Positions 38,451 to 56,231 of a stretch of 64,000 nucleotides of DNA are shown here, one piece after another; the stretch's first letter is position 1; the number at the start of each line of letters is the position of its first letter. The translations under genes and the position numbers were made by a program. The DNA comes from Candidatus Spongiisociaceae bacterium (GTDB taxonomy: Bacteria; Actinomycetota; Acidimicrobiia; Spongiisociales; Spongiisociaceae): positions 1,312,001-1,376,000 of the forward strand of contig CBDCOH010000002.1 in NCBI GenBank assembly GCA_965219685.1. The letters are read 5' to 3'. A model generated the notes under the pieces. That model ran no database searches and had not been told where the DNA came from. It was given only the letters and a program-made list of their open reading frames with translations.

Positions 38451-38634
38451 ACCGCCCCGGAACTGAACCTCCGGCTTCATCGGAGAGTATGGCCCCCCGT
38501 TTGGCCCAGGGCCGACACCGTGTCGTTGACCGGGACATGCTCCCCTCGGCATGTCCACCTATATGCCTCGTACTGGTCGACCTGAGGTGGCTCACCCGTC
38601 GGCTAGGTTTGGAGTTCGTGAGCAGAGGTGCTGG

Positions 38635-40656
38635 ATGAGCGACGAGACGATCAACAACCACGGCGCCTTCATCTGGTCGGTGGCCGACCTGCTGCGGGGT
38701 GTGTACAAGCAGTCGGAGTACGGGCGGGTGATCCTGCCGCTGACGGTGCTGCGGCGTCTCGACTGCGTGCTCGAACCCACCAAGGACAAGGTGCTGGAGG
38801 TGGCGGCCAAGCTTCCCGAGTACCTGGAGAACCGAGCGCCGATTCTGAGGCACGCAGCGGGAGAGTCGTTCTACAACACGTCGAAGCACACCTTCAAGAC
38901 GCTGCTGGCCGATCCGGACAACGTGGCCCCGAACCTGCGGAACTACATCGCCGGGTTCTCGGAGTCGGCCCGGGACATCATCGACAAGTTCAACTTCGAC
39001 ACCCAGATCGACCGTCTCGACCAGCACAACCTGCTGTACCTGGTGGTGTCGCGTTTCGCCGATCTCGATGTGCGCCCGGAGACCGTGTCGAACCTTGAGA
39101 TGGGGTACATCTACGAGGAGTTGATCCGCAAGTTCTCGGAGCTGTCCAACGAGACGGCCGGCGAGCACTTCACGCCCCGCGAGGTGATCCGCCTGATGGT
39201 CAACCTACTGCTGGCGGACGATGACGAGCTGCTGACCGCGCCGGGGATCGTCAAGACGATGCTGGACCCGGCCTGCGGCACGGGGGGGATGCTGTCGGTG
39301 TCGGAGGAGTACCTGCGCAAGCTCAACCCGCAGGGCCGTCTCGACGTGTACGGGCAGGAGGTGAACGCCGAGACCTACGCCACATGCCGGTCGGACATGC
39401 TGATCAAAGGCTTGGACGCGTCACGGATCCGGTTCGGGAACAGCTTCGACGACGACCAGCATCGCAACCGCCGGTTCGACTACCTGCTGGCCAATCCCCC
39501 GTTCGGTTTGGAGTGGAAGATGGTCGCCAACCACATCAGAGCCGAACACAAGACCAAGGGTTTCGCCGGGCGTTTCGGCGCCGGCCTTCCCCGCATCAAC
39601 GACGGCAGCTTCCTGTTCCTCCAGCACATGATCTCCAAAGTGAAGCGCCCCGAAGACGGCGGCACCCGCCTGGCGATCGTGTTCAACGGCTCTCCCCTGT
39701 TCACCGGCGCCGCCGGATCAGGCGAGTCCGAGATCCGCCGCTGGATCATCGAGAACGACTGGCTCGAAGCAGTGGTCGCCCTCCCCGACCAACTGTTCTA
39801 CAACACCGGGATCTCCACCTACTTCTGGGTGGTCACCAACCGCAAGTCCGAGAAGCGGACCGGCAAGGTACAGCTCATCGACGCCCGCGAGTCATGGACC
39901 AAGATGCGAAAGAGCCGCGGCAACAAGCGCAAGGAGATCAGCGAGGAGCAGATAGCCGACCTCACCCGCCTCTACGGCGCCTTCGAGGAAGGGCTCCGCT
40001 CCAAGATCTTCCCCAACGAGGCCTTCGGCTTCCTCCGCATCACCGTCGAACGCCCCCTCCGCCTCCGCTGGGAAATCACCGACGACACCCTGGCTGCCGT
40101 TGCCACCGACAAGAAGATCGCCAAGCTCCCGGCTCTGTCGCAGGATCTGGTCGTCGAGAAGCTCCGGGCCGACCATGGCGTCACCTACCACACCGAGAAG
40201 ACCGCCAAAGCAGCCGTCCGGGATGCTCTGGTAGCGGTCATCGGCAAGAAACCCGCACCCCTTGTCAACGCAGTGACCAACGCCCTCGCAGTGCGTGATC
40301 CCGAAGCCCCCGCCGTCACCGACAGCAAGGGCAACCCCAAACCCGACCCGCAGCTGCGTGACTACGAGAACGTACCCCTACCCACCAAACGGGTCACTCA
40401 CGAGACCGACACCACCAGACGGCTCGACACCATCGAATACCAGACCGCCATCGACGACTACCTCGAAGCAGAAGTCCACCCCTATGTCCCCGACGCCTGG
40501 TACGACCCGAAGAAAACCAAGATCGGCTACGAAGTCCCCCTCACCCGCCACTTCTACACCTACACCCCGCCCCGCCCCCTCGATGAGATCGACGCCGAGA
40601 TCACATCCCTGGAAGCTGAGATCCAGACCCTGCTCGCCGAGGTCGCTGGGGCGTGA
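38635..40656 (+). CDS. hsdM: Type I R-M methyltransferase subunit
   Basis: IWSVADLLRG, GEHFTPREVI, DPACGTGGM and NPPF motifs. Confidence 0.96.
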   Translation: MSDETINNHGAFIWSVADLLRGVYKQSEYGRVILPLTVLRRLDCVLEPTKDKVLEVAAKLPEYLENRAPILRHAAGESFYNTSKHTFKTLLADPDNVAPNLRNYIAGFSESARDIIDKFNFDTQIDRLDQHNLLYLVVSRFADLDVRPETVSNLEMGYIYEELIRKFSELSNETAGEHFTPREVIRLMVNLLLADDDELLTAPGIVKTMLDPACGTGGMLSVSEEYLRKLNPQGRLDVYGQEVNAETYATCRSDMLIKGLDASRIRFGNSFDDDQHRNRRFDYLLANPPFGLEWKMVANHIRAEHKTKGFAGRFGAGLPRINDGSFLFLQHMISKVKRPEDGGTRLAIVFNGSPLFTGAAGSGESEIRRWIIENDWLEAVVALPDQLFYNTGISTYFWVVTNRKSEKRTGKVQLIDARESWTKMRKSRGNKRKEISEEQIADLTRLYGAFEEGLRSKIFPNEAFGFLRITVERPLRLRWEITDDTLAAVATDKKIAKLPALSQDLVVEKLRADHGVTYHTEKTAKAAVRDALVAVIGKKPAPLVNAVTNALAVRDPEAPAVTDSKGNPKPDPQLRDYENVPLPTKRVTHETDTTRRLDTIEYQTAIDDYLEAEVHPYVPDAWYDPKKTKIGYEVPLTRHFYTYTPPRPLDEIDAEITSLEAEIQTLLAEVAGA

Positions 40657-41876
40657 ACCTAACCAAGCTCAAGCGTGTGGCAGTTCTTCGGGCTGGCGGG
40701 ACACCGGCCGTACAGTCCGAACGTTTCTGGCGTGAACCACCCGATGGCATTCCATGGGTCGCGATCGGTGACATGTCGGACGGTGGCCTCGTTAGGGAGA
40801 CTGCTCGACACGTTTCAGCTGAGGGGATCACCGACAAGCGTCTTCCGGTCGGACGCCCTGGGACAGTGCTATTCGCGATGTACGCCAGCGTAGGGGCGGT
40901 CGCTGAGCTTGCCGTAACAGCATCCTGGAACCAGGCCCTGCTTGGGATCGAGCCGGTGCCTGGAGTCTCAACTCGGAGGTTCATCCGCTTCTGGATGGAG
41001 CATCTTCGGCCGGGTCTCGGAGCGCTGGCACGGAGCAACACTCAGGACAATCTGAACGCGGAGCAGGTCGGGAATCTCTACTTCCCAGTCCTGCCTGTGG
41101 AGACGCAGCGGGCGATCGCTGACTACCTCGACACCGAAACCAGCCGCATCGACACCCTCATCATCAAGAAGCGCCGTATGATCGAACTCCTCGACGAACG
41201 CGTACGTTCCCGTCGTGACCAGTGGTTCGAGAACCTGTCCTCTACGTATGGGGTCGTGTCCCTCCGTAGGCGATGGTCGCTCATCGAGCAGGGATGGAGT
41301 CCTGTGTGTGACTCTGAACCTGCGGAGGCAGATGAGTGGGGTGTCATTAAGACAAGCGCTGTCTCGACAGGCGTGTTTGTGCCTGATAACAACAAAAGGC
41401 TCCCTGCTGACAAGGACCCAGACATGCGATGGATGCTTCGGGACGGTGATCTGCTCGTCACGCGCGGGTCGGGTTCTAGGTCGATGGTTGGCAAAGCATG
41501 CGTAGCACGTGTCGGACGAAGAAAACTGACCCTCTCCGATCTCGTGTACCGAGTCCGCTTGGTTCGGACTAGTCCTGATTTTGTGGCTGCTGCCACGTCC
41601 AGTTCGGCGGCTCGATCGCAGATTGAGGGTTCTATTCGGACCGATGTCGGACAGACGTTGAAGGTCCGGCGTGACGATCTAGCCAGCGTTCGTATCCCGG
41701 CAGTTCCCTACAAGTTCCAAGCGAGAGAGGTTAGAGATTTGGCGCGGAGGATATCCCCACTCCAGAAGGCTGAACGATTGATTGAGAAGCAACTGGAACT
41801 GCTCGCCGAGCGTCGGCAGGCCTTGATCACGAAGGCTGTGACCGGCGAGTTGACGGTTCCAGCGGATCAGGGTTAG
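40653..41876 (+). CDS. hsdS: Type I R-M specificity subunit
   Basis: PVETQRAIADYLD central conserved region and ERRQALITKAVTGEL C-terminus; GTGA-coupled to hsdM. Confidence 0.92.
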   Translation: MNLTKLKRVAVLRAGGTPAVQSERFWREPPDGIPWVAIGDMSDGGLVRETARHVSAEGITDKRLPVGRPGTVLFAMYASVGAVAELAVTASWNQALLGIEPVPGVSTRRFIRFWMEHLRPGLGALARSNTQDNLNAEQVGNLYFPVLPVETQRAIADYLDTETSRIDTLIIKKRRMIELLDERVRSRRDQWFENLSSTYGVVSLRRRWSLIEQGWSPVCDSEPAEADEWGVIKTSAVSTGVFVPDNNKRLPADKDPDMRWMLRDGDLLVTRGSGSRSMVGKACVARVGRRKLTLSDLVYRVRLVRTSPDFVAAATSSSAARSQIEGSIRTDVGQTLKVRRDDLASVRIPAVPYKFQAREVRDLARRISPLQKAERLIEKQLELLAERRQALITKAVTGELTVPADQG

Positions 41877-41950: not shown

Positions 41951-43210
41951 TCATGCTTCCCAGAGCATCTTGAGTGGCATGGCGAACAGCCCGTAGTCCA
42001 CCTGTTGGACTTGCTCGGCGTCGTGGAGCAGGACGCCGCACGCGAACGATTCGCCTGCGGATTGCCTGAGGCGTCTCAATCCTCGGAAGTCTCGCGGGCG
42101 GACGGTCGCCGCTGCCTTTATCTCGATGCCGACCACCGCTCCGGGCGAACGTTCCAGGACGAGATCGACCTCGACACCGTCCTTGTCCCGGTAATGACTG
42201 ACGGCAGTCGTCTCGTCAGACAGGGCGATGGCCTTGGCCAGTTCCCCGTGCGCGAAGCACTCGAAGAGTGGTCCCAGCATTCTGCGGTCTGCGGCGAGCC
42301 CGGCGGCGTCAGCGCGTAGCAGTGTGGCCAACAGGCCGGAATCCAGAAAGTGCAGCTTCGGGGCCTTGACGAGCCGCTTGACCTCGCGGTGATGCCAAGC
42401 CCGAACGCGCCGGACCAGGAACATGTGCTCGAGCAGGACGAGCCACCGGTCCACCGTCTTGCTGTCCACGCCAAGACGCGAAGCGAGGCTCGACACGTTG
42501 AGCAGACTCCCTGCCGACAGGACCGCATGGTCCACCAGGCGCGCCAACTCATCGCTCTTGCGGACAGAAGCGATGTCGAGGACGTCCCGCGAAACGACCG
42601 ATCGCGCATAGGAGCGCAGCCAGGCGTTACGCCGGGCTGATTTCGGCCGGGAGAGGGCCTCGGGAAAGCCGCCGGACACGACCTTTTCTACCAAGCCGAA
42701 GGTAGGTCCGGTCTGTTCGAGGCTGGGAAAGTCGCCGTCAAACGCCCGGTCCAGGAAGCGTGGCGGGGAGAGGCCCGCGATCTCCGCCTGTGACAAGGGA
42801 AGAAGCTCGATGGTTTCGACCCGCCCGGCCAGGGAATCCGGCGAGATCGACCCCCGAAAGAGGTCGACCGAACCGGTGATCAGGAAGCGTCCGGGGCGGT
42901 TGTCCTCGTCTACGGCTCTCTTGAGAGCCAGGATGAGATCCGGCGAGCGTTGGACCTCGTCGATCACCACCTTGTCCAGGCCGCGGACAAACCCGACGGG
43001 GTCGTCGCGGGCGAAGCGTCTCGACTGCTCGTCGTCCAGGGTGATGAAGGGACGATCGTCGTGTTCTGCGATGCGCCGGACGAGGGTCGTCTTGCCGGAC
43101 TGGCGTGGCCCCACCACTGCGACGATCCGGGTGTCGGTGAGCGCCACACGGATCCGAGCCACCGCGTGCCGGGTGACGAACTCCCCGGCTGCGAGCGTCT
43201 GATACGGCAT
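41951..43210 (-). CDS. AAA_14 ATPase with DUF4143 and C-terminal PD-(D/E)xK-like domain
   Basis: GPRQSGKT, IDEVQ, LITGS, SLAGR, KAPKLHFLDSG and EVDLVLE...IEIK motifs. Confidence 0.9.
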   Translation of the reverse strand: MPYQTLAAGEFVTRHAVARIRVALTDTRIVAVVGPRQSGKTTLVRRIAEHDDRPFITLDDEQSRRFARDDPVGFVRGLDKVVIDEVQRSPDLILALKRAVDEDNRPGRFLITGSVDLFRGSISPDSLAGRVETIELLPLSQAEIAGLSPPRFLDRAFDGDFPSLEQTGPTFGLVEKVVSGGFPEALSRPKSARRNAWLRSYARSVVSRDVLDIASVRKSDELARLVDHAVLSAGSLLNVSSLASRLGVDSKTVDRWLVLLEHMFLVRRVRAWHHREVKRLVKAPKLHFLDSGLLATLLRADAAGLAADRRMLGPLFECFAHGELAKAIALSDETTAVSHYRDKDGVEVDLVLERSPGAVVGIEIKAAATVRPRDFRGLRRLRQSAGESFACGVLLHDAEQVQQVDYGLFAMPLKMLWEA

Positions 43211-43216
43211 GGGTGA

Positions 43217-43255
43217 CCGTCCAATTCGGAATAGAACCCCGTCCAATTCGGAATA
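43217..43255. promoter_or_regulatory. 17-bp direct repeat with 22-bp period just upstream of the AAA gene
   Basis: CCGTCCAATTCGGAATA at 43217 and 43239. Confidence 0.65.
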
Positions 43256-43357
43256 TACCACCGAGTGGAGCTTCCACGAGTCAACACTCACGAGCTACGA
43301 CAGGGCGAGTTCGCGTCATGGCATCAAGGTGACGCCCCTTGGCTGCAGGATGGATGT

Positions 43358-43371
43358 GGCTACAAGTAGCC
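43358..43371. promoter_or_regulatory. Palindromic putative antitoxin operator
   Basis: GGCTAC-AA-GTAGCC, 22 nt upstream of the Phd/YefM start. Confidence 0.55.
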
Positions 43372-43393
43372 TGAGGGTTCTAGGAGGGGTGAG

Positions 43394-43654
43394 ATGCCGG
43401 AAGTCGGAATCAGGGTCCTGCGAGACAAACTCAACTGGTACATCAGCAGGGTGCGGGAAGGGGAGGAGGTGGTGGTCACCGACCACGGCAAGGCCGTGGC
43501 TCGTATCGTGCCGATCGACAGGCCCGGTCTGATTGAGCCGCTCGTAGCTGAAGGAGTGGTCACGCCTCCCCTCGACAGGGAGCGCACTCCGCTTCGTAGG
43601 CGAATCACACTGACAGCTCCCGTATCTCCCATGATCATCGAAGATCGGCGGTGA
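43394..43654 (+). CDS. Phd/YefM family antitoxin
   Basis: VGIRVLRDKL...VREGEEVVVTDHGKAVARIVP; AGGAGG RBS. Confidence 0.9.
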   Translation: MPEVGIRVLRDKLNWYISRVREGEEVVVTDHGKAVARIVPIDRPGLIEPLVAEGVVTPPLDRERTPLRRRITLTAPVSPMIIEDRR

Positions 43655-43683
43655 TCGCCTGCTTCGACCGTGCTCACTGCTAG
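43651..43683 (+). pseudogene. Stub of a VapC/PIN toxin gene
   Basis: GTGA-coupled to the antitoxin; reads VIACFD (compare MIAYFD.. VapC starts) and stops after 10 codons. Confidence 0.55.
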
Positions 43684-43737
43684 AGCGTCGCTTCCAACGA
43701 CTCTATCGAGCAGTGTGGCGACTTCATCCAAAGTACG

Positions 43738-44112
43738 TCACGGGACCGTGATGGCCTCGGCTCTCACGCTCCGGTAGAAGGTCGTATCCCAGGTCCGCAC
43801 CTGCTCGACGGAGGACGCGTACAGCGATACCAGGCACCAGATAGACGATCGCGTAGCGAGGTCGATGTGGACGAATTTGCCCAGCTGCTCGCGGATCGGG
43901 TCGCGCCGGAGCGCCGCCGACTTCTTCACCAGCAGGATGTCGAGGTCCGACTCTGGGCACTGATCTCCTCGGGCCCGCGAGCCGTACAGCAACACATCGA
44001 CCAACTCGTCGCCGTACAACTCCCGAGCCTTGCCGGCCACCACCGCGGCTGCTTCGAGAGCATGTTCAACCGTAGGCCAGGGATCCTCGAATGCCCATTC
44101 GGTTTCTGCCAT
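43738..44112 (-). CDS. Minimal nucleotidyltransferase (MNT) antitoxin-like protein
   Basis: LYGSRARGD...SDLDILLV motif. Confidence 0.88.
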   Translation of the reverse strand: MAETEWAFEDPWPTVEHALEAAAVVAGKARELYGDELVDVLLYGSRARGDQCPESDLDILLVKKSAALRRDPIREQLGKFVHIDLATRSSIWCLVSLYASSVEQVRTWDTTFYRSVRAEAITVP

Positions 44113-44294
44113 GTTTCTCACGATACCCGGCGTGCGGGACATAGGCGTACACGGTATCTCGCGGCGCCAAGTCCGGTTGGAGACCGTCGCATCCACCAGA
44201 CTCGAAGCAGGGGAGGATCACCAGAGGGCGTTCGTGTCACATGCTGCCCTTAAGATGCCCGGATCATGAGGTCCTGCGAGATGGTGATTGCCGG

Positions 44295-44582
44295 ATGAGT
44301 TCGATTCACGAGGCTGCGTTCGAGGCTCACATCGTCGGATGGCTGGTAGAGCACGGCGGCTACCGGCGGGTGAAGACCACCAGCGAGGGCTACGAGTCCG
44401 ACTTCGACGGTAGTGCCGGGGTGGACACGGCCGACCTGTTCGAGTTCATTGCCGCCACCCAGGCCGAGCAGTGGGACAAGCTGGTGGACTCCGGCTACGG
44501 CGGGCATCCGGTCGTCGATAGGGCGAAGTTAGTGCAGCAGTTGGATTCTCAGCTCGACAAGCGCTATCACGAGGGCCCGTGA
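44295..44582 (+). pseudogene. hsdR: Truncated duplicate of the hsdR 5' end
   Basis: 44310-44563 aligns without gaps to 45507-45760, with about 32 mismatches in 254 bp by hand count; stops after KRYHEGP. Confidence 0.92.
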
Positions 44583-44613
44583 CCGGGGATTTGGACGGAA
44601 GGAAGGCGCGAGC

Positions 44614-45495
44614 GTGATGAGTCCTTATGTTCTCACCATTCGGGTGGTTTCTGGAGAACCCAATGGTGTCAGAGTGGTGGGTAAGTCGAATTGGACTGGC
44701 CGAGGAGTGACCTTTGCCCGTTCTGATCTGACAGCCGCCCGTGAGCATCTCTCTTCGCCGGGGATCTACCTGCTGATCGGCGATGATCCTGAAGGTGGCT
44801 TCGATGAACAGGTCTATGTGGGTCAGGCTGAGAAGGTCGGTACGCGACTCGGACAGCATCAGTCGAGTGACGGTATGGAGTTCTGGACGCAGACCGTGGT
44901 GTTCGTGTCGAAGGACGAGAGTCTGAATCGGGCACACATCCTGTACATCGAGTCCCTCCTCCTCGACCATGCCGACATAGCAGGGCGAGTCCGGATTGCT
45001 AACAAGACCAGGCCTCCTGCACCGACCCTATCCGAGAACACTCGCGTTGAGGCGGAGGGTTTCCTATCAGAGATGCTGACGATCCTGCCCGTACTAGGGG
45101 TGAGCGCCTTCCACAAGCCCAGTACTCCTACATCCGAGAGTCACCGTATCTACTACTTGACAGGTCTAGACGCGGCGGGCGAGGGCGTGGATCAGTCTGA
45201 TGGGTTCCTGGTGCTGGAGGGAGCGAAGGCTCGGGTCCAAGCTGTCCGTTCAATTGACAACGGTTATGGGCTCCTGCGCAAGCAGCTGCTCGATCAGGGT
45301 GCCTTCTTAAAGGAGGGCGGCGCGTACCGGTTGGTCAAAGACCATCTCTTTTCGTCGCCTAGCGCGGCGGCAGCGGCCCTACTCGGCCGTAACGCCAACG
45401 GCCGGACCGAGTGGAAAGACGCCGACGGCGTAACCCTCAAAGACCATCAAAGCGCCGACGCGGGACCAGCCCTCGACGAGAATGCAGACGAGTGA
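44614..45495 (+). CDS. GIY-YIG nuclease with C-terminal DUF4357 (RAMA-like) domain
   Basis: PGIYLL...VYVGQAE..GTRLGQH; C-terminal FSSPSAAAAALLGRNANGRTEWKD. Confidence 0.87.
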   Translation: MMSPYVLTIRVVSGEPNGVRVVGKSNWTGRGVTFARSDLTAAREHLSSPGIYLLIGDDPEGGFDEQVYVGQAEKVGTRLGQHQSSDGMEFWTQTVVFVSKDESLNRAHILYIESLLLDHADIAGRVRIANKTRPPAPTLSENTRVEAEGFLSEMLTILPVLGVSAFHKPSTPTSESHRIYYLTGLDAAGEGVDQSDGFLVLEGAKARVQAVRSIDNGYGLLRKQLLDQGAFLKEGGAYRLVKDHLFSSPSAAAAALLGRNANGRTEWKDADGVTLKDHQSADAGPALDENADE

Positions 45496-48400
45496 TCGCG
45501 GTAACCGAAGCTGCGTTCGAGGCTCACATCGCCGGGTTCCTGGTCGAGCACGGCGGCTACCGGCGGGTGAAGGTCGGCAGCGAGGGCTACGAGTCCGACT
45601 TCGACGGGGCGGCCGGGGTGGACACCGCCGACCTGTTCAAGTTCATCGCGACCACCCAGGCGGAGCGGTGGGACAAGTTGGTCGACTCGGGGTACGGCGG
45701 GGATCCGGTCGTCGCGAGGGCGAAGTTCGTGCAGCGGTTGGCTTCGCAGCTCGACAAGCGGGGAACGGTGGACGTGCTGCGGCGGGGGGTCACCGACTAC
45801 AACGTGAGGTTCCGCCTGGCCTACTTCAAGCCGGGCCACGGACTCGCTCCAGAGCTGTTGGAGCGGTACGAGGCCAACGTCTTGTCGGTCACCCGGCAGT
45901 TTCGCTACCAACCCGGGAGCAACAAGACCATCGACCTCGGCCTGTTCGTGAACGGCGTCCCGGTGGCGACCGCCGAATTGAAGAACCCGTTGACCGGCCA
46001 GAGCGTGGAACATGCGATGTTGCAGTACCGCAATGACCGGGACCCGAAGAACCGGACGCTCAAGCGGGTGGGGATGGTGCATTTCGCCGTGGATCCGTAC
46101 TCGGCGATGATGACCACCCATCTGGCGGGCAAGCAGACCCGGTTCTTGCCGTTCAACCAGGGCCACGATCTGGGGGCGGGGAATCCTCCCAACCCGGACG
46201 GGCACCGGACGTCATACCTGTGGGAGCGGGTGTGGTCCCGGGATGCGTGGATGGACATCCTGGGTCGCTTCATCCATGTCGAGAAGCCGTCGAAGGGTTC
46301 CAAGAAGCGTCCGACGGTGATCTTCCCCCGGTTCCACCAGTGGGACGCCGTCCGCCGCTTGGAGGCCGACGCCAGGGCGACCGGGGCGGGGCGCAACTAT
46401 CTGGTGCAGCACTCGGCCGGGTCGGGCAAGTCGAACTCGATCGCCTGGCTGGCCCACCGGTTCTCGTCGTTGCACAACGAAGCCGATCAGAAGGTGTTCG
46501 ACAAGGTGGTGGTGATCACCGACCGGATCATCCTCGACCGTCAACTGCAAGACGTGATCGGCCAGTTCGAGCACGCCATCGGCGTCGTGGAGTCGATAGA
46601 CAAGGACGCCGGCCAGTTGGCCAAAGCGCTGGCGGGTGAGCAGGCCCGGATCATCGTCACTACCCTCCAGAAGTTCCCGTTCGTTTTCAATCACATCGCG
46701 TCGTTGCCGGAACGCACCTATGCGGTGATCGTGGACGAGGCCCATTCATCGCAGACCGGAGAAGCGGCCAAGGACCTCCGCCGGCTTCTCGGCGTGGCCG
46801 AGGTAGACATCGGCGATGACGCCACGGATACGGAGACGTTGCTGGCCGACGCAGTGGCGGCTCGGGGTCGGCAGCCGAACCTGTCGTTCTTCGCGTTCAC
46901 GGCCACTCCCAAGGGTCGGACCCTGGAGTTGTTCGGCCAGGAGGATCCAGAGGACGGCAAGCACCATCCGTTCCACCTGTACCCGATGCGCCAGGCCATC
47001 CAGGAGGGCTTCATCGAGGACGTGCTGGCCAACTACCTCACCTACAACCGCTATTACCACCTCGAGAAGACCCTGCTAGAGGACCCCAAGTACGAGACGG
47101 CCAAGGCCCGTGCCGCGCTGGCCCGTTTCGTCAACCTCCACCCCGACAACCTGGGGCAGAGGGCCGACATCGTCGTCGAGCACTTCCTGGACAAGATCGC
47201 CCACCGGATGAAGAGGAAGGCAAAGGCGATGGTGGTCTGCTCATCCCGGCCTCACGCGGTGGGAATGTGGAAGGCGCTCCGCAAGCACATCAAACACAAC
47301 GGCTACGACCTAGGGGTCTTGGTGGCGTTCTCCGGGGAGGTGGAGAGCCTGACCGAGACCAAGGCCAACGGCTTTCCTGAATCCGAGACCGCCACCCGCT
47401 TCGATGGCGACGAGTATCAGATCATGGTGGTGGCCGAGAAGTTCCAGACCGGCTTCGACCAGCCCAAGCTGGTAGCCATGTACGTCGACAAGACCCTGAG
47501 CGACCTCGCCGCGGTGCAGACGTTGTCCCGTCTCAACCGGACCCACCCGGACAAGGACGGCACGTTCGTCCTGGACTTCGTCAACGACACCGATGACATC
47601 CGCGACGCCTTCGCCGTCTATCACGGCAAGACCGTGGCGCCACCCACCGACCCGAACCTGATGTTCGACACCCGCGACGCGCTCAACGAATTCCACATTC
47701 TGGACCCCGGCGAGATGCAGCAGGTCGCCGTGCTCATCCTGGACAGGGGAAGCAACCACGCACAGATCCACGCCGCCATGCAGCCCACGGTCGAACGTTT
47801 CAAAGCCTTGGACGAAGAGGACCAGGACATGTTCCGGGACGCCCTCACCCGCTTCGTGCGCGTCTACGGATTTCTCGCCCAGATCGTGAAGTTCTCCAAC
47901 GTGGAGCTCGAACGCGACTACATCTTCTGCCGCGCGTTGGCGAGGCTCATACGCGGCAAGCCCGGCGAGGGCATCGACCTGGGCGACGAGGTCGAACTCA
48001 CCCATCTCCGCCACGACAAGATCTTCGATGGCTCCATCTCCCTCTCCGCCTCCGAAGGTGAGGTCCAGACGATCTACTCCGGTGACGGACGCCTGGTTGA
48101 CCCCGATGAGGAACTCCTGTCGGAGATCATCGCCCGCATCAACGAACTGCACGGCACCGACTGGACCGACGACGACCGACTCGTCTTCGATACCGCCGCC
48201 AACGCCCTGGTCAAGGACGAGCACATCCAGGACCAAGCCGTCAACAACGACGAAGCCACCTTCCGCGACCACGTCTTCGCCGGCGAGTTCGAAAAGGCGC
48301 TGGTGTCCAGGGCGGACCGCTTCGGGGAAGTCGTCTACACCTACCTCGACAACAAGCAGATGCAGGCGGCAGTTATTGCTGTCTACGCGGCCAAGGTCCA

Positions 48401-48944
48401 GAAACAGGCCATCGTCGCGAAGCAGCAGACCTGCCCCATCGGCGACCTGCTCGGCCCCGACCGCGAGTCCCTCTACCTTGAGTACAAGTCCACCCTCCGC
48501 TGGGACATCAAGCAACAGCAGAAGTCCAAGCACATCGAGACCGCCGCCATCAAGACCATCGCCGGCTTCGCCAACTCCCCCTACGGAGGCACCCTCCTGA
48601 TCGGAGTAGGCGACGACGGCTCCGTCCACGGCCTCGAAGACGACTACAACACCTTCTCGAAGTACGGCCAACAAGGCAACCACGACCTCTGGGGCCAACA
48701 CCTCCAGAACCTCATCCGCAGCCGCCTAGGCGACTACGCCCTCTCCCTGGTCACCTGGCAGTTCCACAAAGTCAACGGCCAAGACCTAGCCCGCATCCAC
48801 GTCGATCCCTCAACCCACCCCATCTACGACCACAAGGGCCAGGCCGAGACCTTCTGGCACCGTACCCCCGTCAGCACGCTCGCCATCACCGACGACAACG
48901 AACGCGCCCACATCATCGCCGCCCGCTGGGGCAGCAGTGCGTGA
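45492..48944 (+). CDS. hsdR: Type I R-M restriction subunit with fused C-terminal Schlafen/AlbA_2 domain
   Basis: AELKN, HSAGSGKS, DEAH, FTATP, FQTGFD and QTLSRLNR motifs; C-terminal ESLYLEYKSTL...AGFANS..GGTLLIGVGDDG. Confidence 0.93.
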   Translation: MIAVTEAAFEAHIAGFLVEHGGYRRVKVGSEGYESDFDGAAGVDTADLFKFIATTQAERWDKLVDSGYGGDPVVARAKFVQRLASQLDKRGTVDVLRRGVTDYNVRFRLAYFKPGHGLAPELLERYEANVLSVTRQFRYQPGSNKTIDLGLFVNGVPVATAELKNPLTGQSVEHAMLQYRNDRDPKNRTLKRVGMVHFAVDPYSAMMTTHLAGKQTRFLPFNQGHDLGAGNPPNPDGHRTSYLWERVWSRDAWMDILGRFIHVEKPSKGSKKRPTVIFPRFHQWDAVRRLEADARATGAGRNYLVQHSAGSGKSNSIAWLAHRFSSLHNEADQKVFDKVVVITDRIILDRQLQDVIGQFEHAIGVVESIDKDAGQLAKALAGEQARIIVTTLQKFPFVFNHIASLPERTYAVIVDEAHSSQTGEAAKDLRRLLGVAEVDIGDDATDTETLLADAVAARGRQPNLSFFAFTATPKGRTLELFGQEDPEDGKHHPFHLYPMRQAIQEGFIEDVLANYLTYNRYYHLEKTLLEDPKYETAKARAALARFVNLHPDNLGQRADIVVEHFLDKIAHRMKRKAKAMVVCSSRPHAVGMWKALRKHIKHNGYDLGVLVAFSGEVESLTETKANGFPESETATRFDGDEYQIMVVAEKFQTGFDQPKLVAMYVDKTLSDLAAVQTLSRLNRTHPDKDGTFVLDFVNDTDDIRDAFAVYHGKTVAPPTDPNLMFDTRDALNEFHILDPGEMQQVAVLILDRGSNHAQIHAAMQPTVERFKALDEEDQDMFRDALTRFVRVYGFLAQIVKFSNVELERDYIFCRALARLIRGKPGEGIDLGDEVELTHLRHDKIFDGSISLSASEGEVQTIYSGDGRLVDPDEELLSEIIARINELHGTDWTDDDRLVFDTAANALVKDEHIQDQAVNNDEATFRDHVFAGEFEKALVSRADRFGEVVYTYLDNKQMQAAVIAVYAAKVQKQAIVAKQQTCPIGDLLGPDRESLYLEYKSTLRWDIKQQQKSKHIETAAIKTIAGFANSPYGGTLLIGVGDDGSVHGLEDDYNTFSKYGQQGNHDLWGQHLQNLIRSRLGDYALSLVTWQFHKVNGQDLARIHVDPSTHPIYDHKGQAETFWHRTPVSTLAITDDNERAHIIAARWGSSA

Positions 48945-49541: not shown

Positions 49542-51215
49542 TTGAAAGCCCGAGTTAGCTTCGAACAAGTCGGTATCGGTAGCCTATTAAAGCATAACCT
49601 CCTTCGAGTACCTCCGAACCAGCGCGACTACGCTTGGACTGAACGCGAGGTGGAACAGCTCTTTACAGACATCGCACTGGCGATCGGGAATGACGACGAC
49701 TACTTCCTTGGTACCATCGTAACCATCCCACGGCAAGCTACTCTAGAGGTCGTCGATGGCCAGCAGCGACTCGCGACTACCGCGATTCTCCTGTCCGCTA
49801 TACGCCTATACATGAAGGAACTTAGCGAGGACATTCTCGAGCAAGCAATACGCGAGTTTCTGATAGGTATCGACCGTCACCGACGGGAGCTCGTACCCCG
49901 AATGACGCTGAACTCCACCGATCACGATCTCTTCCGGGCAATCGTCACGAACGGCGGTGAGGACAATCTACCTCAGCCAAGCCTTGAGTCACAACGGTTG
50001 TTATTGGATGCATATAGCCACGCGCGCAAATATGTGGATAATATTGTTAGCACCCACCAATTACGTGACCATGGTGACCGCCTAAACACGTGGGTTACCT
50101 TCCTCGAAGCAAGGGCGAGTGTTATACTCCTCAAGGTCCCTGATGACTCGGACGCCTATCGGATGTTCGAGACACTCAACGATCGCGGCTTACGTACTTC
50201 ACAGGCCGACCTTATAAAGAATTTCCTGTTTGGCCGTGCAGGCGACCGAATTACTGAAGTCCAAAATTCATGGTCATTCATGCGAGGTACACTTGAGACC
50301 ATAAACGAACGCGACATTACGGTGACCTTCCTTCGCCAGGCACTGATACTTTTGCATGGGCATCTCAGAACATCCGACGTCTACAGTAAAGTCCAAGAGA
50401 CTATCAATTCGGAGAGTTCAGCCGTTAGATTTGCCTCGGATCTTGATTGGCTCGCTACAACATATGCGGCAACTCTCAATCCTGAACACAAGAAATGGAA
50501 CCCTCTTCCTCCTCAAGCTAGAGAAGCCATCCGTGTGTTTAACGTACTCAACATTCGACCACTCAGACCAACAGTGCTAGCTTCTGGTGCTCGGATAGCA
50601 GATCCGACTGAGCTAGCCAACGTTCTACAGTTCCTGCTCTCTTTAGGCGTTCGTCTGCTCATCGCTTCGTCTACGAGGAGCCAGGCTGTGGAGATGCCAC
50701 TTGCTAACGCGGCCCACTTTTTGTGGACCGGAGCGATAACGACTGCCGACCAACTCAGGAATTCGCTGAAATCTATAACTCCAAGCGATAGGGTTTTTCG
50801 AACGGCGTGTGAAACCGTGCGAGTCTGGAACGCACGTCTAGCACGTTACTATCTGAGGTCACTTGAGACAGCTGCTAAGGACGAGGACGAGCCGTGGTTC
50901 ATTCCTATTGACGACCCGACAATTGTTAATTTAGAGCATGTGCTGCCAAAGAGGCCTGGCACGAATTGGCCCCTGTTTAATGAGGATGAAGTACGCCTAT
51001 ATAGCAGTAGACTGGGCAATTTGACGCTAATGCACGCTCGCGAGAATAGTACCGTTCGTAGTGGCTCCTTCGACGAAAAGAAGCCCCTCTTCAGTCAGTC
51101 ACCATACATATTGACTAGCCAAGTGGCTAGGTATCCGGAGTGGACTGTTGAGGCGATCAACGCGCGGCAAGTGGAGTTAGCTCAACTAGCGCCCAAGGCT
51201 TGGCCCATCCGATAG
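49542..51215 (+). CDS. DUF262 + DUF1524(HNH) GmrSD/SspE-like endonuclease
   Basis: QRDYAW, VVDGQQR and FETLNDRG; C-terminal LEHVLPK...LGNLTLM...N. Visibly lower GC. Confidence 0.9.
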   Translation: MKARVSFEQVGIGSLLKHNLLRVPPNQRDYAWTEREVEQLFTDIALAIGNDDDYFLGTIVTIPRQATLEVVDGQQRLATTAILLSAIRLYMKELSEDILEQAIREFLIGIDRHRRELVPRMTLNSTDHDLFRAIVTNGGEDNLPQPSLESQRLLLDAYSHARKYVDNIVSTHQLRDHGDRLNTWVTFLEARASVILLKVPDDSDAYRMFETLNDRGLRTSQADLIKNFLFGRAGDRITEVQNSWSFMRGTLETINERDITVTFLRQALILLHGHLRTSDVYSKVQETINSESSAVRFASDLDWLATTYAATLNPEHKKWNPLPPQAREAIRVFNVLNIRPLRPTVLASGARIADPTELANVLQFLLSLGVRLLIASSTRSQAVEMPLANAAHFLWTGAITTADQLRNSLKSITPSDRVFRTACETVRVWNARLARYYLRSLETAAKDEDEPWFIPIDDPTIVNLEHVLPKRPGTNWPLFNEDEVRLYSSRLGNLTLMHARENSTVRSGSFDEKKPLFSQSPYILTSQVARYPEWTVEAINARQVELAQLAPKAWPIR

Positions 51216-51674: not shown

Positions 51675-54600
51675 GTGGGTTTGAGTTGGTCGGACGTTAG
51701 AGCCTTGAACGGTTCACAGCGGAAGGGCTTTGAAGAGCTATGCGCTCAGTTGGCTCGGCTCGAGACACCGGCTGGCGCGGAGTTCTTCCGTAAGGGCAGC
51801 CCGGACAGTGGAGTCGAGTGCTTCTGCAAGCTCGAGGACGGCGGGGAATGGGGTTGGCAGGCGAAGTTCTTCCTCGAGTCTCTGGGTGACGGGCAGTGGG
51901 GGCAGATTGATCGATCGGTCAAGGCTGCGCTGGAGGCTCACCCGAGACTGGCCCGCTATTTCGTGTGTGTTCCGCGTGACCGTCCTGATAGCCGCAGAGA
52001 AGGCATTAAGACGGAGATGCAGAAGTGGCAGAAACGCGTCTCCACCTGGGAGAGCTGGGCCCAAGAACGTGGGATGGAAGTCGAGTTTGTGTGGTGGGGC
52101 TCATCTGAGTTGACGGACCTCCTCTCGCAAGACCACCAGGCTGGGCGTCTTCGGTTCTGGTTCGGCACCGCCGGACAGTTCAGCGGCGAGTGGTTCGACA
52201 AGCAGTTGGAGCGCGCTATAGCGGTGGCAGGGCCGCGGTATACACCGGAGGTTCATGTCGACGTGCCGATCGTCGGAGACTTCGAGTTGTTCGGCCGTAC
52301 GGAGGCCGCCGAGGCAACTGTGCGCGACCTTGCCAAGGAGATCCGGCAGACCTCTGCCTACGCCATTCGCAGCCTCGCCCGCGAAGGCACATCCAGCTCC
52401 GTGCCGGAGTTAGGTGATGTCGTTGAATCTGTGGAGACGGTCGTCGAGGCGCTCTATGCGATACGCTGCGTTGCGCATCAGCAGTGGCCGCTGTCAGAGA
52501 TTGCGTCAAGAATCGATGAGGCTCTCGATCGTCTATCGGCGTGCGTCGTACCCTTGTCGAGGGAGGCCGACGTATTCGAGTCACGTAACGAGACCGAGGA
52601 CATCTCCGGCAGGGTTCGACAGAACCCATACAAAGAAGCTGCCCACGACGTCCGTGCGATGCGACGCGCTCTGGGCGATGTCTGGTCAACGGTCAGACGG
52701 ATCGACCAGGTTGCCAACAGGGGTTTGTTGATCGTCACGGGTAAGGCTGGGTCAGGTAAGACGCATCTGTTTTGCGACGTGGCGACTCAGCGGTTAGCTC
52801 AAGGCTCCCCCACGGTGGTCTTGATGGGTCAGCAGTTCACCACGACAGAACCACCGTGGACACAAGCGCGCTCTCAGCTTGACCTCGCGGACCTGTCTGC
52901 TGAGCAGTTCGTGGGCGCACTTGAAGCCGCCGCGCAGGTCTCCAACGCTAGGGCACTGTTCATGATCGACGCGATTAACGAGGGAGAGGGCCGGGTGATC
53001 TGGCCACCACATCTCGCCGACCTTCTCACCCACCTGAACGCTTCGCCTTGGATCGGTGTCGTGCTGTCGGTTCGATTGCCCTTTGCTGGCCACATGGTCC
53101 CTGATCCGGTAAGGGACACCGCGTATGAGGTGGAACACCGTGGCTTCGCAGATGACCCCTACGCGGCTGTTGAACGATTCTGTGAGCACTACAGCCTGGA
53201 CTTCCCTTCGACACCACTGCTACGGGATGAATTCAGCAATCCGCTGTTCCTCAAGACCCTCTGCGAAGGGCTGCACAACCGCGGAGAGCGTAGCATTCCC
53301 CTCGGTTCTGAAGGCATCATCACGGTCTTCGACAGGCACTTGGAAGCAATCGACGCCACTCTCGCCACCAGACTGGATTATGACCCCCAAGATCGGATTG
53401 TCGTCCGGTCGCTCGACGCGGTGGCCTCAGAACTCGCCGAACGCGGAACCCGCTGGCTTCCCAAGCACAAAGCCCGAGAACTTGTCGATCCCCTGGCACC
53501 GGGCACCGGATACAGTCGCTCGATCTATCGAGCACTCGTCGACACTGGACTGTTGACAGAGATCCCGGGTTCCAGCCCTAACGACGAGTGGAGCGTCGCC
53601 TTCGGCTATGAGTGGTTCGCTGATCATCTGATTGCTGAGCACCTCATCGCCGGGTGCGCGGACGCTCACGAGTTGGTCCGCAAGCTGACGAGAGAACTTG
53701 GCGACCACCACTCACGGGCCTGGACTGTCCGGAACGCACCTTTGGACGCGTTGAGCATCCTGTTGCCGGAGCTGCTCGGAGTCGAACTGCCAGAGGCCTT
53801 CGCGGATCACAGGACCAGCCCCGGCATCAGCCGTGCCTTCTTGAGGGGCCTGCCATGGCGAGACCCGTCCCGAATCGGATCAAGCTGCCAGGAGTTGATC
53901 CTCGATCTACTCGCGGAGGCGCAGCACTCGGGGACGGTGGACATCTTCGACGCGCTCATGGCATGCGTGATTGTGCCCCATCATCCCCTTGGCGCCGGGT
54001 TCCTCGAACAACACTTGCGGCGACTTAAGATGCCTGACCGCGACGCGGTGTGGTCCCAATACCTTCACCTCGCGTACAGCCGCAACGGGCCACTGGACCG
54101 CCTCCTCGACTGGGCAGAGAAGCACCACGCGCGTACAGCAACGCTCGATCACGACACAGCCTCGGTGTGTGTCGCTGTGTTGGCCTGGTGCTTGACTGCT
54201 TCTAATCGCTTCGTTCGAGATCGCGCCACCAAGGGCCTAGTCGCGGTTTTGACCAACAAGATCCCGCTGGCATGTGAACTAGTCGAACGGTTCAACGATG
54301 TAGACGATCCCTACGTGCGTGAACGTGTCATGGCCGCGGCTTACGGCGTGGCGATGCGCAGCACCGACGCCCAATCGCTCGCCCTGCTTGCCGACTCCGT
54401 GCATCGCCTGATCTTCGCCGACGGGAAGCCTCCACCACACATCCTGCTACGCGACTACGCACGCGGTGTCATTGAACGAGCCGAGTACTTAGACGCTGAC
54501 ATCGAGGCCGACGCGATTCTCGTAGACCCCCCCTATCGCAGCGAATGGCCCCACATCCCAGGTGACGGCGAAATGAAGATACTCGATCCGCCCTTCGAGG

Positions 54601-56231
54601 AGGATCGTCCAGAGCCATCTAATGCTGCGAGGGCGCAGGGATACATACCCTTTTCGGTGATGCGATGGGACTTCGCTCATTATGTCATCGGCACCAACTC
54701 AAGGTCGGTATCCAACCATTGGCTATCTGTGCCGATCACGGATCCGCCATGGCAGTCACCACGAGAGCGTGCTGAGACCTTCGGCAGTTCACTTGACCGC
54801 GACCTGCAGGAGACCTTCAACGAACTTTGGACCGGCACTCGCCCCGTCGACTCGTTCATCTCGTTCATCAACTCTGCAGCCGAACTCGAATCCGACGTCG
54901 TTGACGAGTCGGCGCTGTCCTACACGATCACGGAGCCCTACATCGACCCCGAACTCGAAGCGCTGTTCGTCGCTGAGCTCAGGGACGAACAGAGAGCCGA
55001 ATACGAAGGTGCGAAGGCCGCCCGTGGCACCGACGAACCCCGTCTTGAACTCGACATCATCCAGCGCTATGTGCTTTGGAGGGTGTTCGATCTGGGATGG
55101 AACAGAGAGCGATTCGGTGACCTGGACTGGCGTATCCAGCACTCAAATAGCTTCTCGGGCCGCGACGCTCGCAAGCCGGAACGTATCGGTAAGAAGTATC
55201 AGTGGATCGCGTACCACGAGATCCTCGCGTTCATATCAGATCACTATCAATACTGGGACCCCTACTGCGACGTGCTACCCAGAGACGCGTATCGAGGGAC
55301 GTGGCAGCTATCCATTCGTGACATCGACCCTTCCGCCGTCATGGGCGCCGCAGCACCGCCTCGTGAGCGTAATGAAGGTTCCACCCGGTGGTGGAACCGC
55401 GACGTACTAGTCGCCTCAGTAGATGATGTGGGCGACCAGCAATGGTTAAGCCAAACATCCGACATCCCTGGCCGCGATCAGCAACTGCGTTACACAAACC
55501 CCGACAACGGCAGCATCTGGATCAAGCTGCATGGCATGGACATCTGGGAGTCACAACTCCCAGCGGGTTATGACCGCCACGAAGTCGATCATCGAGACAT
55601 CTGGCTATCCGCATTCGGATATCTCATCGACGCTACCGGGATCGAAGACTTCATCGAGTGGTCCAACACCGTGGACTTCTCAGGTCGCTGGATGCCAGAG
55701 CCCCCAGGGGCCTTCGACCTGTTTTTTGGCGAACTCGGCTGGAGCTTCGCTTCCCAAGCCCTACTCGGCAACCAACCGGGAGCAGAGCAACCCAGACCCC
55801 GAGGCGGTGGCCCCCGATGCCCGGTACCTCTACAGCCAGCCGCTTTCCAATGCTCCGCCAACGGCGGCGGGTACGACTGCTCACTCGCCCACAGCGGAGT
55901 ATTTTACCGACCCAACCCTTGTCTAGTCGAAACCATGAACCTACAGTGGACGGGTCAGGGCGCCGACTTCGCACACCCAGACGGGACCCTCGCAGTGTTC
56001 GACCCGTCAGCGCACGACAACGGACGAGGAGCGCTTCTCGCGCAGGAAGAGACTCTGGCGCGCTTCTTGGACCAAACACGCTCAGCCCTCGTATGGGTGA
56101 TCGCCGCCGAAAAGCGTGCGATCAAACCCCGACGCTCTCAACACGCTCAATCACGCTTCCTGGGACTCCAGGGTACCTGTGTGTACCAACCCGGACCCCT
56201 AGCCGGCGATCTCACCACACACCCCGCATAG
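51675..56231 (+). CDS. AVAST/Avs-like STAND NTPase with N-terminal Mrr-like nuclease domain
   Basis: N-terminal FEELC...DSGVE...GWQAKFF; Walker A GKAGSGKT; Walker B FMIDAINE; NPLFL; long C-terminal region with ERIGKKYQWIA; 1518 aa. Confidence 0.8.
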   Translation: MGLSWSDVRALNGSQRKGFEELCAQLARLETPAGAEFFRKGSPDSGVECFCKLEDGGEWGWQAKFFLESLGDGQWGQIDRSVKAALEAHPRLARYFVCVPRDRPDSRREGIKTEMQKWQKRVSTWESWAQERGMEVEFVWWGSSELTDLLSQDHQAGRLRFWFGTAGQFSGEWFDKQLERAIAVAGPRYTPEVHVDVPIVGDFELFGRTEAAEATVRDLAKEIRQTSAYAIRSLAREGTSSSVPELGDVVESVETVVEALYAIRCVAHQQWPLSEIASRIDEALDRLSACVVPLSREADVFESRNETEDISGRVRQNPYKEAAHDVRAMRRALGDVWSTVRRIDQVANRGLLIVTGKAGSGKTHLFCDVATQRLAQGSPTVVLMGQQFTTTEPPWTQARSQLDLADLSAEQFVGALEAAAQVSNARALFMIDAINEGEGRVIWPPHLADLLTHLNASPWIGVVLSVRLPFAGHMVPDPVRDTAYEVEHRGFADDPYAAVERFCEHYSLDFPSTPLLRDEFSNPLFLKTLCEGLHNRGERSIPLGSEGIITVFDRHLEAIDATLATRLDYDPQDRIVVRSLDAVASELAERGTRWLPKHKARELVDPLAPGTGYSRSIYRALVDTGLLTEIPGSSPNDEWSVAFGYEWFADHLIAEHLIAGCADAHELVRKLTRELGDHHSRAWTVRNAPLDALSILLPELLGVELPEAFADHRTSPGISRAFLRGLPWRDPSRIGSSCQELILDLLAEAQHSGTVDIFDALMACVIVPHHPLGAGFLEQHLRRLKMPDRDAVWSQYLHLAYSRNGPLDRLLDWAEKHHARTATLDHDTASVCVAVLAWCLTASNRFVRDRATKGLVAVLTNKIPLACELVERFNDVDDPYVRERVMAAAYGVAMRSTDAQSLALLADSVHRLIFADGKPPPHILLRDYARGVIERAEYLDADIEADAILVDPPYRSEWPHIPGDGEMKILDPPFEEDRPEPSNAARAQGYIPFSVMRWDFAHYVIGTNSRSVSNHWLSVPITDPPWQSPRERAETFGSSLDRDLQETFNELWTGTRPVDSFISFINSAAELESDVVDESALSYTITEPYIDPELEALFVAELRDEQRAEYEGAKAARGTDEPRLELDIIQRYVLWRVFDLGWNRERFGDLDWRIQHSNSFSGRDARKPERIGKKYQWIAYHEILAFISDHYQYWDPYCDVLPRDAYRGTWQLSIRDIDPSAVMGAAAPPRERNEGSTRWWNRDVLVASVDDVGDQQWLSQTSDIPGRDQQLRYTNPDNGSIWIKLHGMDIWESQLPAGYDRHEVDHRDIWLSAFGYLIDATGIEDFIEWSNTVDFSGRWMPEPPGAFDLFFGELGWSFASQALLGNQPGAEQPRPRGGGPRCPVPLQPAAFQCSANGGGYDCSLAHSGVFYRPNPCLVETMNLQWTGQGADFAHPDGTLAVFDPSAHDNGRGALLAQEETLARFLDQTRSALVWVIAAEKRAIKPRRSQHAQSRFLGLQGTCVYQPGPLAGDLTTHPA

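Follow-up and report, generated by a model that had tools for sequence, protein, structure and literature searches.

A Schlafen/AlbA_2 domain at the C-terminus of the type I restriction subunit HsdR in a Spongiisociaceae bacterium: a candidate restriction-coupled ribonuclease

The stretch of DNA analysed here (the window) comprises 64,000 nucleotides from a Candidatus Spongiisociaceae bacterium (GenBank assembly GCA_965219685.1, contig CBDCOH010000002.1, positions 1,312,001 to 1,376,000 of the forward strand) and contains hsdR::AlbA_2, a gene of a type I restriction-modification (R-M) system in which the restriction subunit HsdR is extended by a domain of the Schlafen/AlbA_2 family. The frame at 45411-48944 on the plus strand was translated without a stop. 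Its probable start, the GTG at 45492, overlaps in the sequence GTGA with the TGA that ends the upstream open reading frame (ORF) and yields a protein of 1150 amino acids, the same length as the identical database entry P0002; residue numbers refer to this protein. The HsdR core (45492..48407), consisting of a PD-(D/E)xK nuclease, a superfamily 2 (SF2) motor, and a helical C-terminal region, is followed by the Schlafen/AlbA_2 module of about 178 residues (48408..48941), recognised by the Pfam family PF04326, a structural model, structural matches, and a profile alignment, and by the stop codon (48942..48944). A preliminary description made from the sequence had placed about 165 extra residues with two motifs behind the HsdR core; both motifs, ESLYLEYK at 48465 and AGFANSPYGGTLLIGVGDDG from 48561, were found in the translated frame, and the extension itself was real but measured about 178 residues. 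No promoter-like or plus-strand terminator-like site was detected between window positions 48700 and 49700, no Rfam family matched between 36000 and 57000, and a tRNA gene search found none.

Pfam domains appeared in the order HSDR_N, SWI2_SNF2/ResIII/DEAD, T1R_D3-like, and C-terminal PF04326. HSDR_N scored 51 bits (cut-off 25.1), and SWI2_SNF2 (77.9 bits), ResIII (44.8), and the T1R_D3-like domain (43.4) also exceeded their Pfam cut-offs, while PADLOC assigned the protein to the type I restriction enzymes (REase_I). The NCBIfam hsdR subfamily TIGR00348 matched with 173.5 bits, below its curated cut-off of 284.55, so that the window HsdR represents a divergent lineage. The full-length AlphaFold model, with a predicted local distance difference test score (pLDDT) of 76.3 and a predicted template modelling score (pTM) of 0.54, was closest to EcoR124I HsdR (E 1.3e-18); it was helical at residues 723-821 and 876-980, disordered between them (823-873), and entered the AlbA_2 domain immediately after the last long helix.

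Conservation was examined in an alignment of 94 full-length HsdR-AlbA_2 proteins (A3; 92 from one search plus P0136 and P0159), which are 48-90% identical to the window protein. The nuclease residues D148 (45933-45935), E162 (45975-45977), and K164 (45981-45983) were invariant, as were the motor motifs G310-S-G-K-S314 (46419-46433) and D415-E-A-H418 (46734-46745) and residue Q676, the motif QTLSRLNR being encoded at 47517-47540. With its Pfam domains above cut-off and its motifs invariant in 94 proteins, the complete nuclease-helicase HsdR of the preliminary description was borne out: judged by sequence, the gene encodes an intact type I HsdR with predicted DNA nuclease and ATP-driven DNA translocase activities. 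The idea that the tail substitutes for a dead HsdR nuclease was rejected on the invariance of D148, E162, and K164.

The PF04326 (SLFN_AlbA_2) profile matched residues 1019-1152 of the 45411-48944 frame over profile positions 1-110 of 118 (E 1.9e-12, 48.2 bits, cut-off 25.3), and the assignment was repeated by profile and by fold, as the preliminary description had anticipated. The AlphaFold model of the tail was confident (pLDDT 95.6, pTM 0.91). Foldseek searches of the PDB with this model returned the bacterial AlbA_2 protein DIP2311 (3lmm, E 3e-7), with further matches to SLFN13, SLFN11, the tRNase/DNA-binding domain of SAMD9, SLFN14, SLFN12, and SLFN5 (E from 3e-7 to 1e-3). VIA-align gave Z scores of 14.2 for 3lmm, 13.2 for 7ksp, 12.6 for the tRNase domain of rat SAMD9 (9o0d), and 9.3-10.6 for the C-lobes of SLFN14, SLFN5, SLFN11, SLFN13, and SLFN12 (chain ranges of about 180-350). 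Rows 1-18 of this ranking were of Schlafen fold (Z 9.3-14.2), rows 19 and 20 scored 8.8 and 7.1, and the first unrelated fold scored 4.6; the Schlafen-fold match of the modelled tail is far beyond chance. A profile built from the last 178 residues and 59 relatives (A2) reached pig SLFN11 (E 8e-10), SLFN14, SLFN13, and CbCash among PDB sequences, where a phmmer search with the single tail sequence returned only a spurious FAP251 match (E 0.001).

The profile alignment to SLFN11, SLFN13, and SLFN14 placed the family motif ExxxxEFK on the Schlafen 'ESxSIEFK' and 'LLIGVdD' (GGxLLxGVDD) on 'LLFGVDD'. Residues E992 (48465-48467), E997 (48480-48482), and D1041 (48612-48614), which form the putative ribonuclease (RNase) triad, thereby fell on E205, E210, and D248 of rat SLFN13 (an inferred offset of 13 was applied between the 5yd0 chain index and the residue number), and K999 (48486-48488) lies beside them. 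Mutation of rSLFN13 E205, E210, and D248 abolished RNA cleavage (PMC5862951), and the nuclease-dead variants of RorSlfn5 (E15A/D20A; PMC13056530) and CbCash (E17Q/D22N; PMC13462974) carry changes at the same first two acidic residues. The three acidic residues were invariant in A3 and K999 was present in at least 90% of its members, in agreement with the ExxxxExK and downstream aspartate that had been pointed out initially. When both motifs were counted by regular expression in the C-terminal 200 residues, they were present in 112 of 120 proteins of this HsdR type and 104 of 121 of a second type described below; among the proteins missed are some with slightly different motif spellings or additional C-terminal domains, and conservation was therefore taken from A3. 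Since the HsdR motifs and the tail triad are invariant in the same alignment, both catalytic centres appear to be under selection. By comparison of profiles and models, then, the tail is a Schlafen/AlbA_2 domain with an intact conserved triad, equivalent to the C-lobe only of the mammalian proteins.

The fusion was not confined to one genome. A search with the tail, restricted to proteins of 647-2060 residues, gave 227 matches at E<=1e-3 among 468 candidates. The 120 matches listed had tails 59-100% identical to the window tail over its 178 residues; 116 of them combined PF04326 with HsdR domains and four combined it with HsdM_N and N6_Mtase, and 92 were 1130-1200 residues long. The named HsdR-AlbA_2 relatives came from metagenome-assembled genomes (MAGs) of Acidimicrobiia/Actinomycetota. 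Fourteen close loci were found in species-representative genomes, all of them Acidimicrobiia MAGs, several belonging to a sponge-associated family. The order hsdM-hsdS-(variable inserts)-hsdR::AlbA_2 was kept in 7 of these 14 (L012, L016, L017, L020, L021, L023, L025); the hsdR::AlbA_2 frame was full-length and intact in L012, L015, L017, L020, and L021 and ended at a contig edge in L013 and L023. HsdR-AlbA_2 is thus well populated in Acidimicrobiia and environmental metagenomes, and the suspicion that it might be a singleton can be set aside given more than 200 relatives and the tailed loci counted below. Two proteins, P0147 (658 residues) and P0371 (1413 residues), carry an additional C-terminal Peptidase_S24 domain of the self-cleaving LexA/UmuD type, a hint that some systems use proteolysis to release or control the Schlafen module.

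The tail is an optional part of this HsdR family. When 151 genomes of the class were sampled, 14 had an AlbA_2 domain (E<=1e-15) and 9 had this HsdR core (E<=1e-60), and orthologues at 49-61% identity were tailed in G123, G066, G024, and G096 and untailed in G131, G016 (twice), and G150. Prevalence was estimated from 80 metagenomic loci picked by HsdM similarity alone, of which 51 hold this HsdR type and 35 extend to its C-terminal end; three of the 35 were cut by the contig end and were left out. A tail was present at 8 of the 32 evaluable loci, each time in a single open frame with 176-192 extra residues and Ex4ExK, which puts the tailed share of this R-M family at about a quarter. The other 24 end 3-38 residues past the core (residue 972) with at least 560 nucleotides of contig remaining, and the junction is accordingly sharp at about residue 972.

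The same module was found on other proteins of the source genome, which contains six PF04326 matches above cut-off, the window gene included. Three of these are classical proteins with an N-terminal AlbA_2 domain followed by HATPase_c_4. A second HsdR of 1270 residues (L008:6696-10508), belonging to the PF11867 (T1RH-like_C) subfamily, bears a C-terminal AlbA_2 domain at residues 1112-1248 that is 35% identical to the window tail and closes a compact hsdM-hsdS-hsdR operon (L008:6696-13335; G000:C2, about 108.7-115.3 kb). A further protein of 757 residues (L007:5932-8205) joins GmrSD_N (DUF262) to AlbA_2, the architecture of EcoSlfn7; its Schlafen domain occupies the position usual for the GmrSD nuclease domain DUF1524. 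The three restriction-linked tails of this genome share 32-35% identity with one another and 19-21% with the HATPase-type domains. Proteins of the second HsdR type gave 125 matches at E<=1e-3 among 405 candidates; all 120 listed carry PF04326 and PF11867, and their database name is 'HsdR family type I site-specific deoxyribonuclease'. The module also occurs on the methyltransferase subunit. HsdM-AlbA_2 proteins (P0048, P0082, P0090, P0096, and P0393 among them) are 58-69% identical to the window HsdM, with tails 66-74% identical to the window tail, attached after residue ~677 or replacing the last ~180 residues of HsdM. When metagenomes were scanned with P0096, only unfused HsdM orthologues were recovered, matching residues 1 to ~644.

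An AlbA_2 tree was computed from 102 domains (IQ-TREE quick mode, SH-aLRT support only, midpoint root). For each HsdR type one full-length protein in five was sampled, and every fusion partner that had been found was added together with 21 'AlbA_2-only' representatives; of these 107 rows, five were left out because their domain matches were short or missing. The first HsdR type formed a 29-row set (support 98), within which all five HsdM-borne domains made up one clade (87) and a HEPN-AlbA_2 protein (L022) and two short ORFs lay in the crown (99). The second HsdR type was a separate clade of 23 rows (98) beside the DUF262 fusion of the same genome (92). This topology is read most simply as two or more separate attachments to HsdR cores with a single transfer to HsdM. 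At the L022 locus (5491-6677), an MNT nucleotidyltransferase gene precedes the 274-residue HEPN and AlbA_2 fusion, whose AlbA_2 domain is 81% identical to the window tail; the pair may be either toxin-antitoxin-like with two predicted RNase domains or what is left of an hsdR::AlbA_2 locus after rearrangement.

An exhaustive comparison of the tail with 1.84 billion representative proteins gave 4700 hits at E<=1e-3 and 1882 at E<=1e-10. A Pfam scan covered 131 of the best 150 representatives (the 19 shortest were excluded, and partners were tallied by hand), and 130 of the 131 carried PF04326, nearly always at the C-terminus. Restriction-type partners were pieces of HsdR (6), HsdM (4), Eco57I/MmeI-type enzymes (2), GmrSD_N (2), and a DUF4011-helicase-MTES_1575 protein (1). 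Other partners were receiver domains (6), TIR (2), STAND NTPases (2), SBP_bac_3 (3), and bPH_2 (2), with one case each of protein kinase, HisKA, cNMP-binding, NUDIX, AbiJ_NTD3, HAD, and PDT/ACT; about 94 had no second Pfam domain, and many of these are probably fragments. To judge from these architectures, the partner spectrum is the pattern of a shared effector joined to many sensors.

Prokaryotic Schlafens (pSlfns) act as anti-phage effectors, and 97.1% of them are joined to further domains, in 55 architectures (PMC13056530). RorSlfn5, an Ig-like-Slfn protein, is a trigger-activated, Mn-dependent tRNA-cleaving ribonuclease (tRNase), and EcoSlfn7 (DUF262-Slfn) shields E. coli against many phages (PMC13056530). 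The CRISPR-associated Cash protein cleaves the tRNA T-loop, tRNA cleavage being reported for CbCash (PMC13462974), and Schlafen RNases are treated as backup effectors in BREX loci (PMC12839542). PrrC, an unrelated tRNase, is kept latent by the type Ic enzyme EcoprrI and freed by a phage inhibitor (PMC1484252; PMC12707154). With these precedents, we consider it probable, on balance, that HsdR-AlbA_2 is a restriction-coupled putative RNase, that is, a Schlafen effector wired to a type I complex in a way that would link restriction to a stop of translation; a restriction-coupled tRNase is the reading that, at present, best fits the sequence comparisons and the analogies. An optional pSlfn module of about 178 residues, a predicted ribonuclease, has been added to the C-terminus of HsdR and would serve as a second effector, cutting tRNA (or other RNA) as the characterised bacterial and mammalian Schlafens do. 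On the R2M2S1 complex it would be kept silent, and a change in the state of the complex would release it, leading to translation stop and to growth arrest or abortive infection.

The activation step may consist in bringing tails together, by analogy only with SLFN11, Cash, RorSlfn5, and RzAgo. We suppose that activation needs such a meeting because a prokaryotic Schlafen is one lobe of the two-lobe mammalian nuclease, as exemplified by RzAgo (10.64898/2026.05.29.728809), and the known cases act as dimers, hexamers, or filaments. Two triggers were considered. The Schlafen tails might be clustered when the complex engages unmodified foreign DNA, translocates along it, or collides on it, which we put forward tentatively; a trigger like that of PrrC or PARIS, in which phage anti-restriction proteins inhibit the complex or make it fall apart, seems more doubtful. 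A dual-output enzyme, in which translocation on unmodified DNA would lead both to DNA cleavage by the PD-ExK nuclease and to tRNA cleavage by collision-clustered Schlafen domains, is likewise conceivable, though we would not wager on it. Because the same module sits on orthologous HsdM, membership of the assembled type I complex would matter rather than attachment to the motor as such.

Several observations weigh against a restriction-coupled RNase. Of the seven pSlfn systems that were tested, only two gave E. coli protection (PMC13056530), and three quarters of this R-M family lack the tail, which must consequently be dispensable for restriction. A histidine-kinase-like ATPase accompanies over half of the surveyed pSlfns (34.0% + 19.2%; PMC13056530), and HsdR-AlbA_2 has no such GHKL-type ATPase by Pfam, so that the silencing of an RNase on an abundant enzyme is left unexplained. 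The full-length model, at its pTM of 0.54, is too uncertain to place the tail relative to HsdR or to show docking. Some close loci are damaged: hsdR::AlbA_2 is frameshifted in L016 and L025, and derivatives that are truncated or short occur in L014, L018, L019, and L022, which shows decay in some lineages or else assembly errors. DNA binding is also on record for this fold: the structural match ranked second is the human SAMD9 domain in a crystal with DNA (7ksp, Z 13.2), and the NCBI name of such proteins is 'putative DNA binding domain-containing'.

The last two points suit a tail that is a nucleic-acid-binding accessory, holding or recognising DNA, single-stranded DNA, R-loops, or RNA-DNA hybrids or tethering the complex, with no arrest of translation; the AlbA superfold is a nucleic-acid binder, and the dispensability of the tail (24 of 32 loci do without it) would also fit. 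A pure binder needs none of the acidic residues that are catalytic in SLFN13 and invariant in the 94 homologues, nor the lysine K999 retained beside them. The equivalent rat SAMD9 domain is a tRNase, the prokaryotic Schlafens characterised in the cited literature, as far as its accessible parts go, are all tRNases, and partners such as TIR, STAND, receivers, and AbiJ are effector-like; binding without catalysis is therefore the strongest rival and still rather unlikely. A further reading makes the tail a second DNA nuclease that acts on single-stranded, nicked, or looped DNA arising from translocation and reinforces the destruction of foreign DNA. Fusion to DNA-processing enzymes (HsdR twice, HsdM, Eco57I/MmeI-type, GmrSD_N, DUF4011 helicase), the replacement of the DNA-cutting DUF1524 in the GmrSD_N fusions, and the speculation that R-M-linked homologues sense DNA-cleavage structures (PMC13462974) speak for it, but it would be redundant because HsdR retains its invariant PD-ExK nuclease, and the substrate found in studies of prokaryotic Schlafens, in the accessible text, was tRNA (PMC13056530, PMC13462974, 10.64898/2026.05.29.728809). 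We regard a second DNase as improbable. Far less credible still is a decaying or neutral passenger of defence-island recombination with no present function: the damaged derivatives among the 14 loci and the patchy distribution of the tail would be expected of it, but purifying selection is strong, the 120 listed tails being well conserved and the triad invariant in 94 proteins, a second HsdR lineage gained the tail independently and also conserves it, and all eight fused metagenomic loci keep a single open frame with Ex4ExK.

Among described systems, the protein resembles the pSlfns of PMC13056530 in joining PF04326 with Ex4(E/D)xK to a presumed sensor in one polypeptide within a defence island, and differs from them in that its partner is a complete restriction subunit of a three-protein complex and the Schlafen domain is C-terminal. 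Unlike EcoSlfn7, it has no DUF262/GmrSD_N domain by Pfam, although its paralogue in the same genome (L007) has one. A physical or genetic tie between Schlafens and R-M is also on record: over half of the defence-associated homologues are R-M- or nuclease-linked, with direct fusions of methyltransferase (MTase) and Slfn (PMC13462974), a Schlafen-GHKL (Schlatpase) module is fused to type I HsdS, and SLFN domains are swapped among pAgo, NACHT, and R-M proteins (10.64898/2026.05.29.728809); an exchange of modules between R-M and other defence proteins is thus described. These known cases are MTase or HsdS fusions, or ATPase-containing Slfn proteins beside R-M, whereas the window protein is a motor-nuclease subunit without a GHKL/HisKinase-like ATPase. 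PrrC/EcoprrI and PARIS share with the proposed system a tRNA-cutting effector functionally tied to type I R-M, the 'RM guardian' logic (PMC1484252, PMC12707154). PrrC, however, is a protein in its own right that combines an ABC-ATPase with an RNase domain of unrelated type, and the window protein has neither; Pfam, NCBIfam, and PADLOC found in it only HsdR families and PF04326 and no PrrC/RloC domains. The comparison with PrrC drawn in the preliminary description consequently holds for the logic and fails for homology.

SLFN11, SLFN13, SLFN14, and SAMD9 share fold and catalytic triad with the tail, and SLFN11 additionally combines a Schlafen tRNase with a DNA-sensing helicase domain in one polypeptide (PMC13056530). 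The mammalian Schlafens differ in having both N- and C-lobes, where the tail corresponds to the C-lobe, and a C-terminal SF1-like helicase rather than a restriction motor. EcoR124I HsdR agrees in domain order, PD-ExK and SF2 motifs, fold, and adjacent hsdM and hsdS, and ends without the 178-residue Schlafen tail, as do 24 of the 32 orthologous loci.

The first appraisal, that no characterised example existed and that the system was undescribed, was too strong, since bacterial Schlafen tRNase effectors including MTase and HsdS fusions were reported in 2025-2026. What appears to be new, as far as these partly accessible sources go, is a Schlafen hard-wired to the motor subunit of type I restriction; the pSlfn tRNase defence effectors and their R-M links were known already. 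In the accessible main texts of the literature on Schlafen/AlbA_2 with HsdR, restriction-modification, or type I restriction, no HsdR-AlbA_2 fusion was found. The terms HsdR, SNF2, ResIII, methyltransferase, and endonuclease are absent from the main text of PMC13056530, 'HsdR' is absent from the accessible text of PMC13462974, and 10.1101/776245 and PMC6765204 name Schlafen only as a DUF2075 helicase relative.

Very few couplings of R-M to abortive infection have been worked out in detail (PrrC, PARIS). How R-M-linked Schlafens are activated was left open in PMC13462974, with sensing of DNA-cleavage products as a speculation, and coupling for R-M-adjacent Schlafens is explicitly an open matter in the 2026 papers, in their accessible parts; in HsdR-AlbA_2, sensor and effector would be covalently joined. 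The question of coupling becomes directly testable here because unfused orthologues provide natural controls and because HsdM-borne variants and a second, independent HsdR fusion exist. Should engagement of DNA set off the RNase, R-M systems might be translation-arrest devices besides DNA cutters; should inhibition do so, HsdR-AlbA_2 might be a one-polypeptide guardian against anti-restriction proteins. The dual-output reading, if true, would mean that recognition of foreign DNA directly shuts down translation through a built-in abortive-infection arm gated by a DNA motor, a prokaryotic counterpart of the DNA-sensing helicase and tRNase design of SLFN11.

The partner subunits are encoded upstream of hsdR on the same strand, with 3.6 kb of inserted genes between. 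The type I methyltransferase gene hsdM (38551..40656, plus strand, 701 residues) was identified by Pfam HsdM_N and N6_Mtase and by PADLOC (MTase_I PDLC03029, 909.8 bits), and its stop is overlapped by the start of hsdS, the specificity subunit gene (40653..41876, plus strand, 407 residues; Pfam Methylase_S; PADLOC Specificity_I, 207.9 bits). The inserted accessory genes (41951..45495), annotated with Pfam and PADLOC, comprise a PDC-S01 ATPase with AAA_14 and DUF4143 (41951-43291, minus strand), a Phd/YefM-like ORF (43394-43654, plus), an MNT nucleotidyltransferase of PDC-S09 (43738-44196, minus), and PDC-S14/DUF4357 (44614-45495, plus). Related loci differ in which subset of these gap genes they hold. 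The genes are therefore probably independent passengers outside the R-M/Schlafen machine, and the type I operon serves as an insertion site for other defence genes.

The window locus belongs to a defence island with SoFic, the type I R-M system, PDC-S01, MNT/PDC-S09, PDC-S14, GmrSD, and Avs2, a setting that favours the reading as a restriction-coupled RNase. The Fic-domain protein (37149-38450; PADLOC SoFic, 225 bits) lies directly upstream of hsdM, and in L014 a copy 89% identical to it precedes a short AlbA_2 ORF by about 4 kb. Downstream, a type IV restriction gene of GmrSD type (HEC-06; 49542-51215) has a G+C content of 0.50-0.51 against about 0.62 around it, which suggests recent acquisition; the next gene encodes a full-length Avs2 (51675-56231; NCBIfam 1091.9 bits). 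At the two frameshifted relatives, the matches to the HsdR core break at residues 674/676 (L016) and 383/386 (L025), a split that could reflect a pseudogene, phase variation, or an assembly error.

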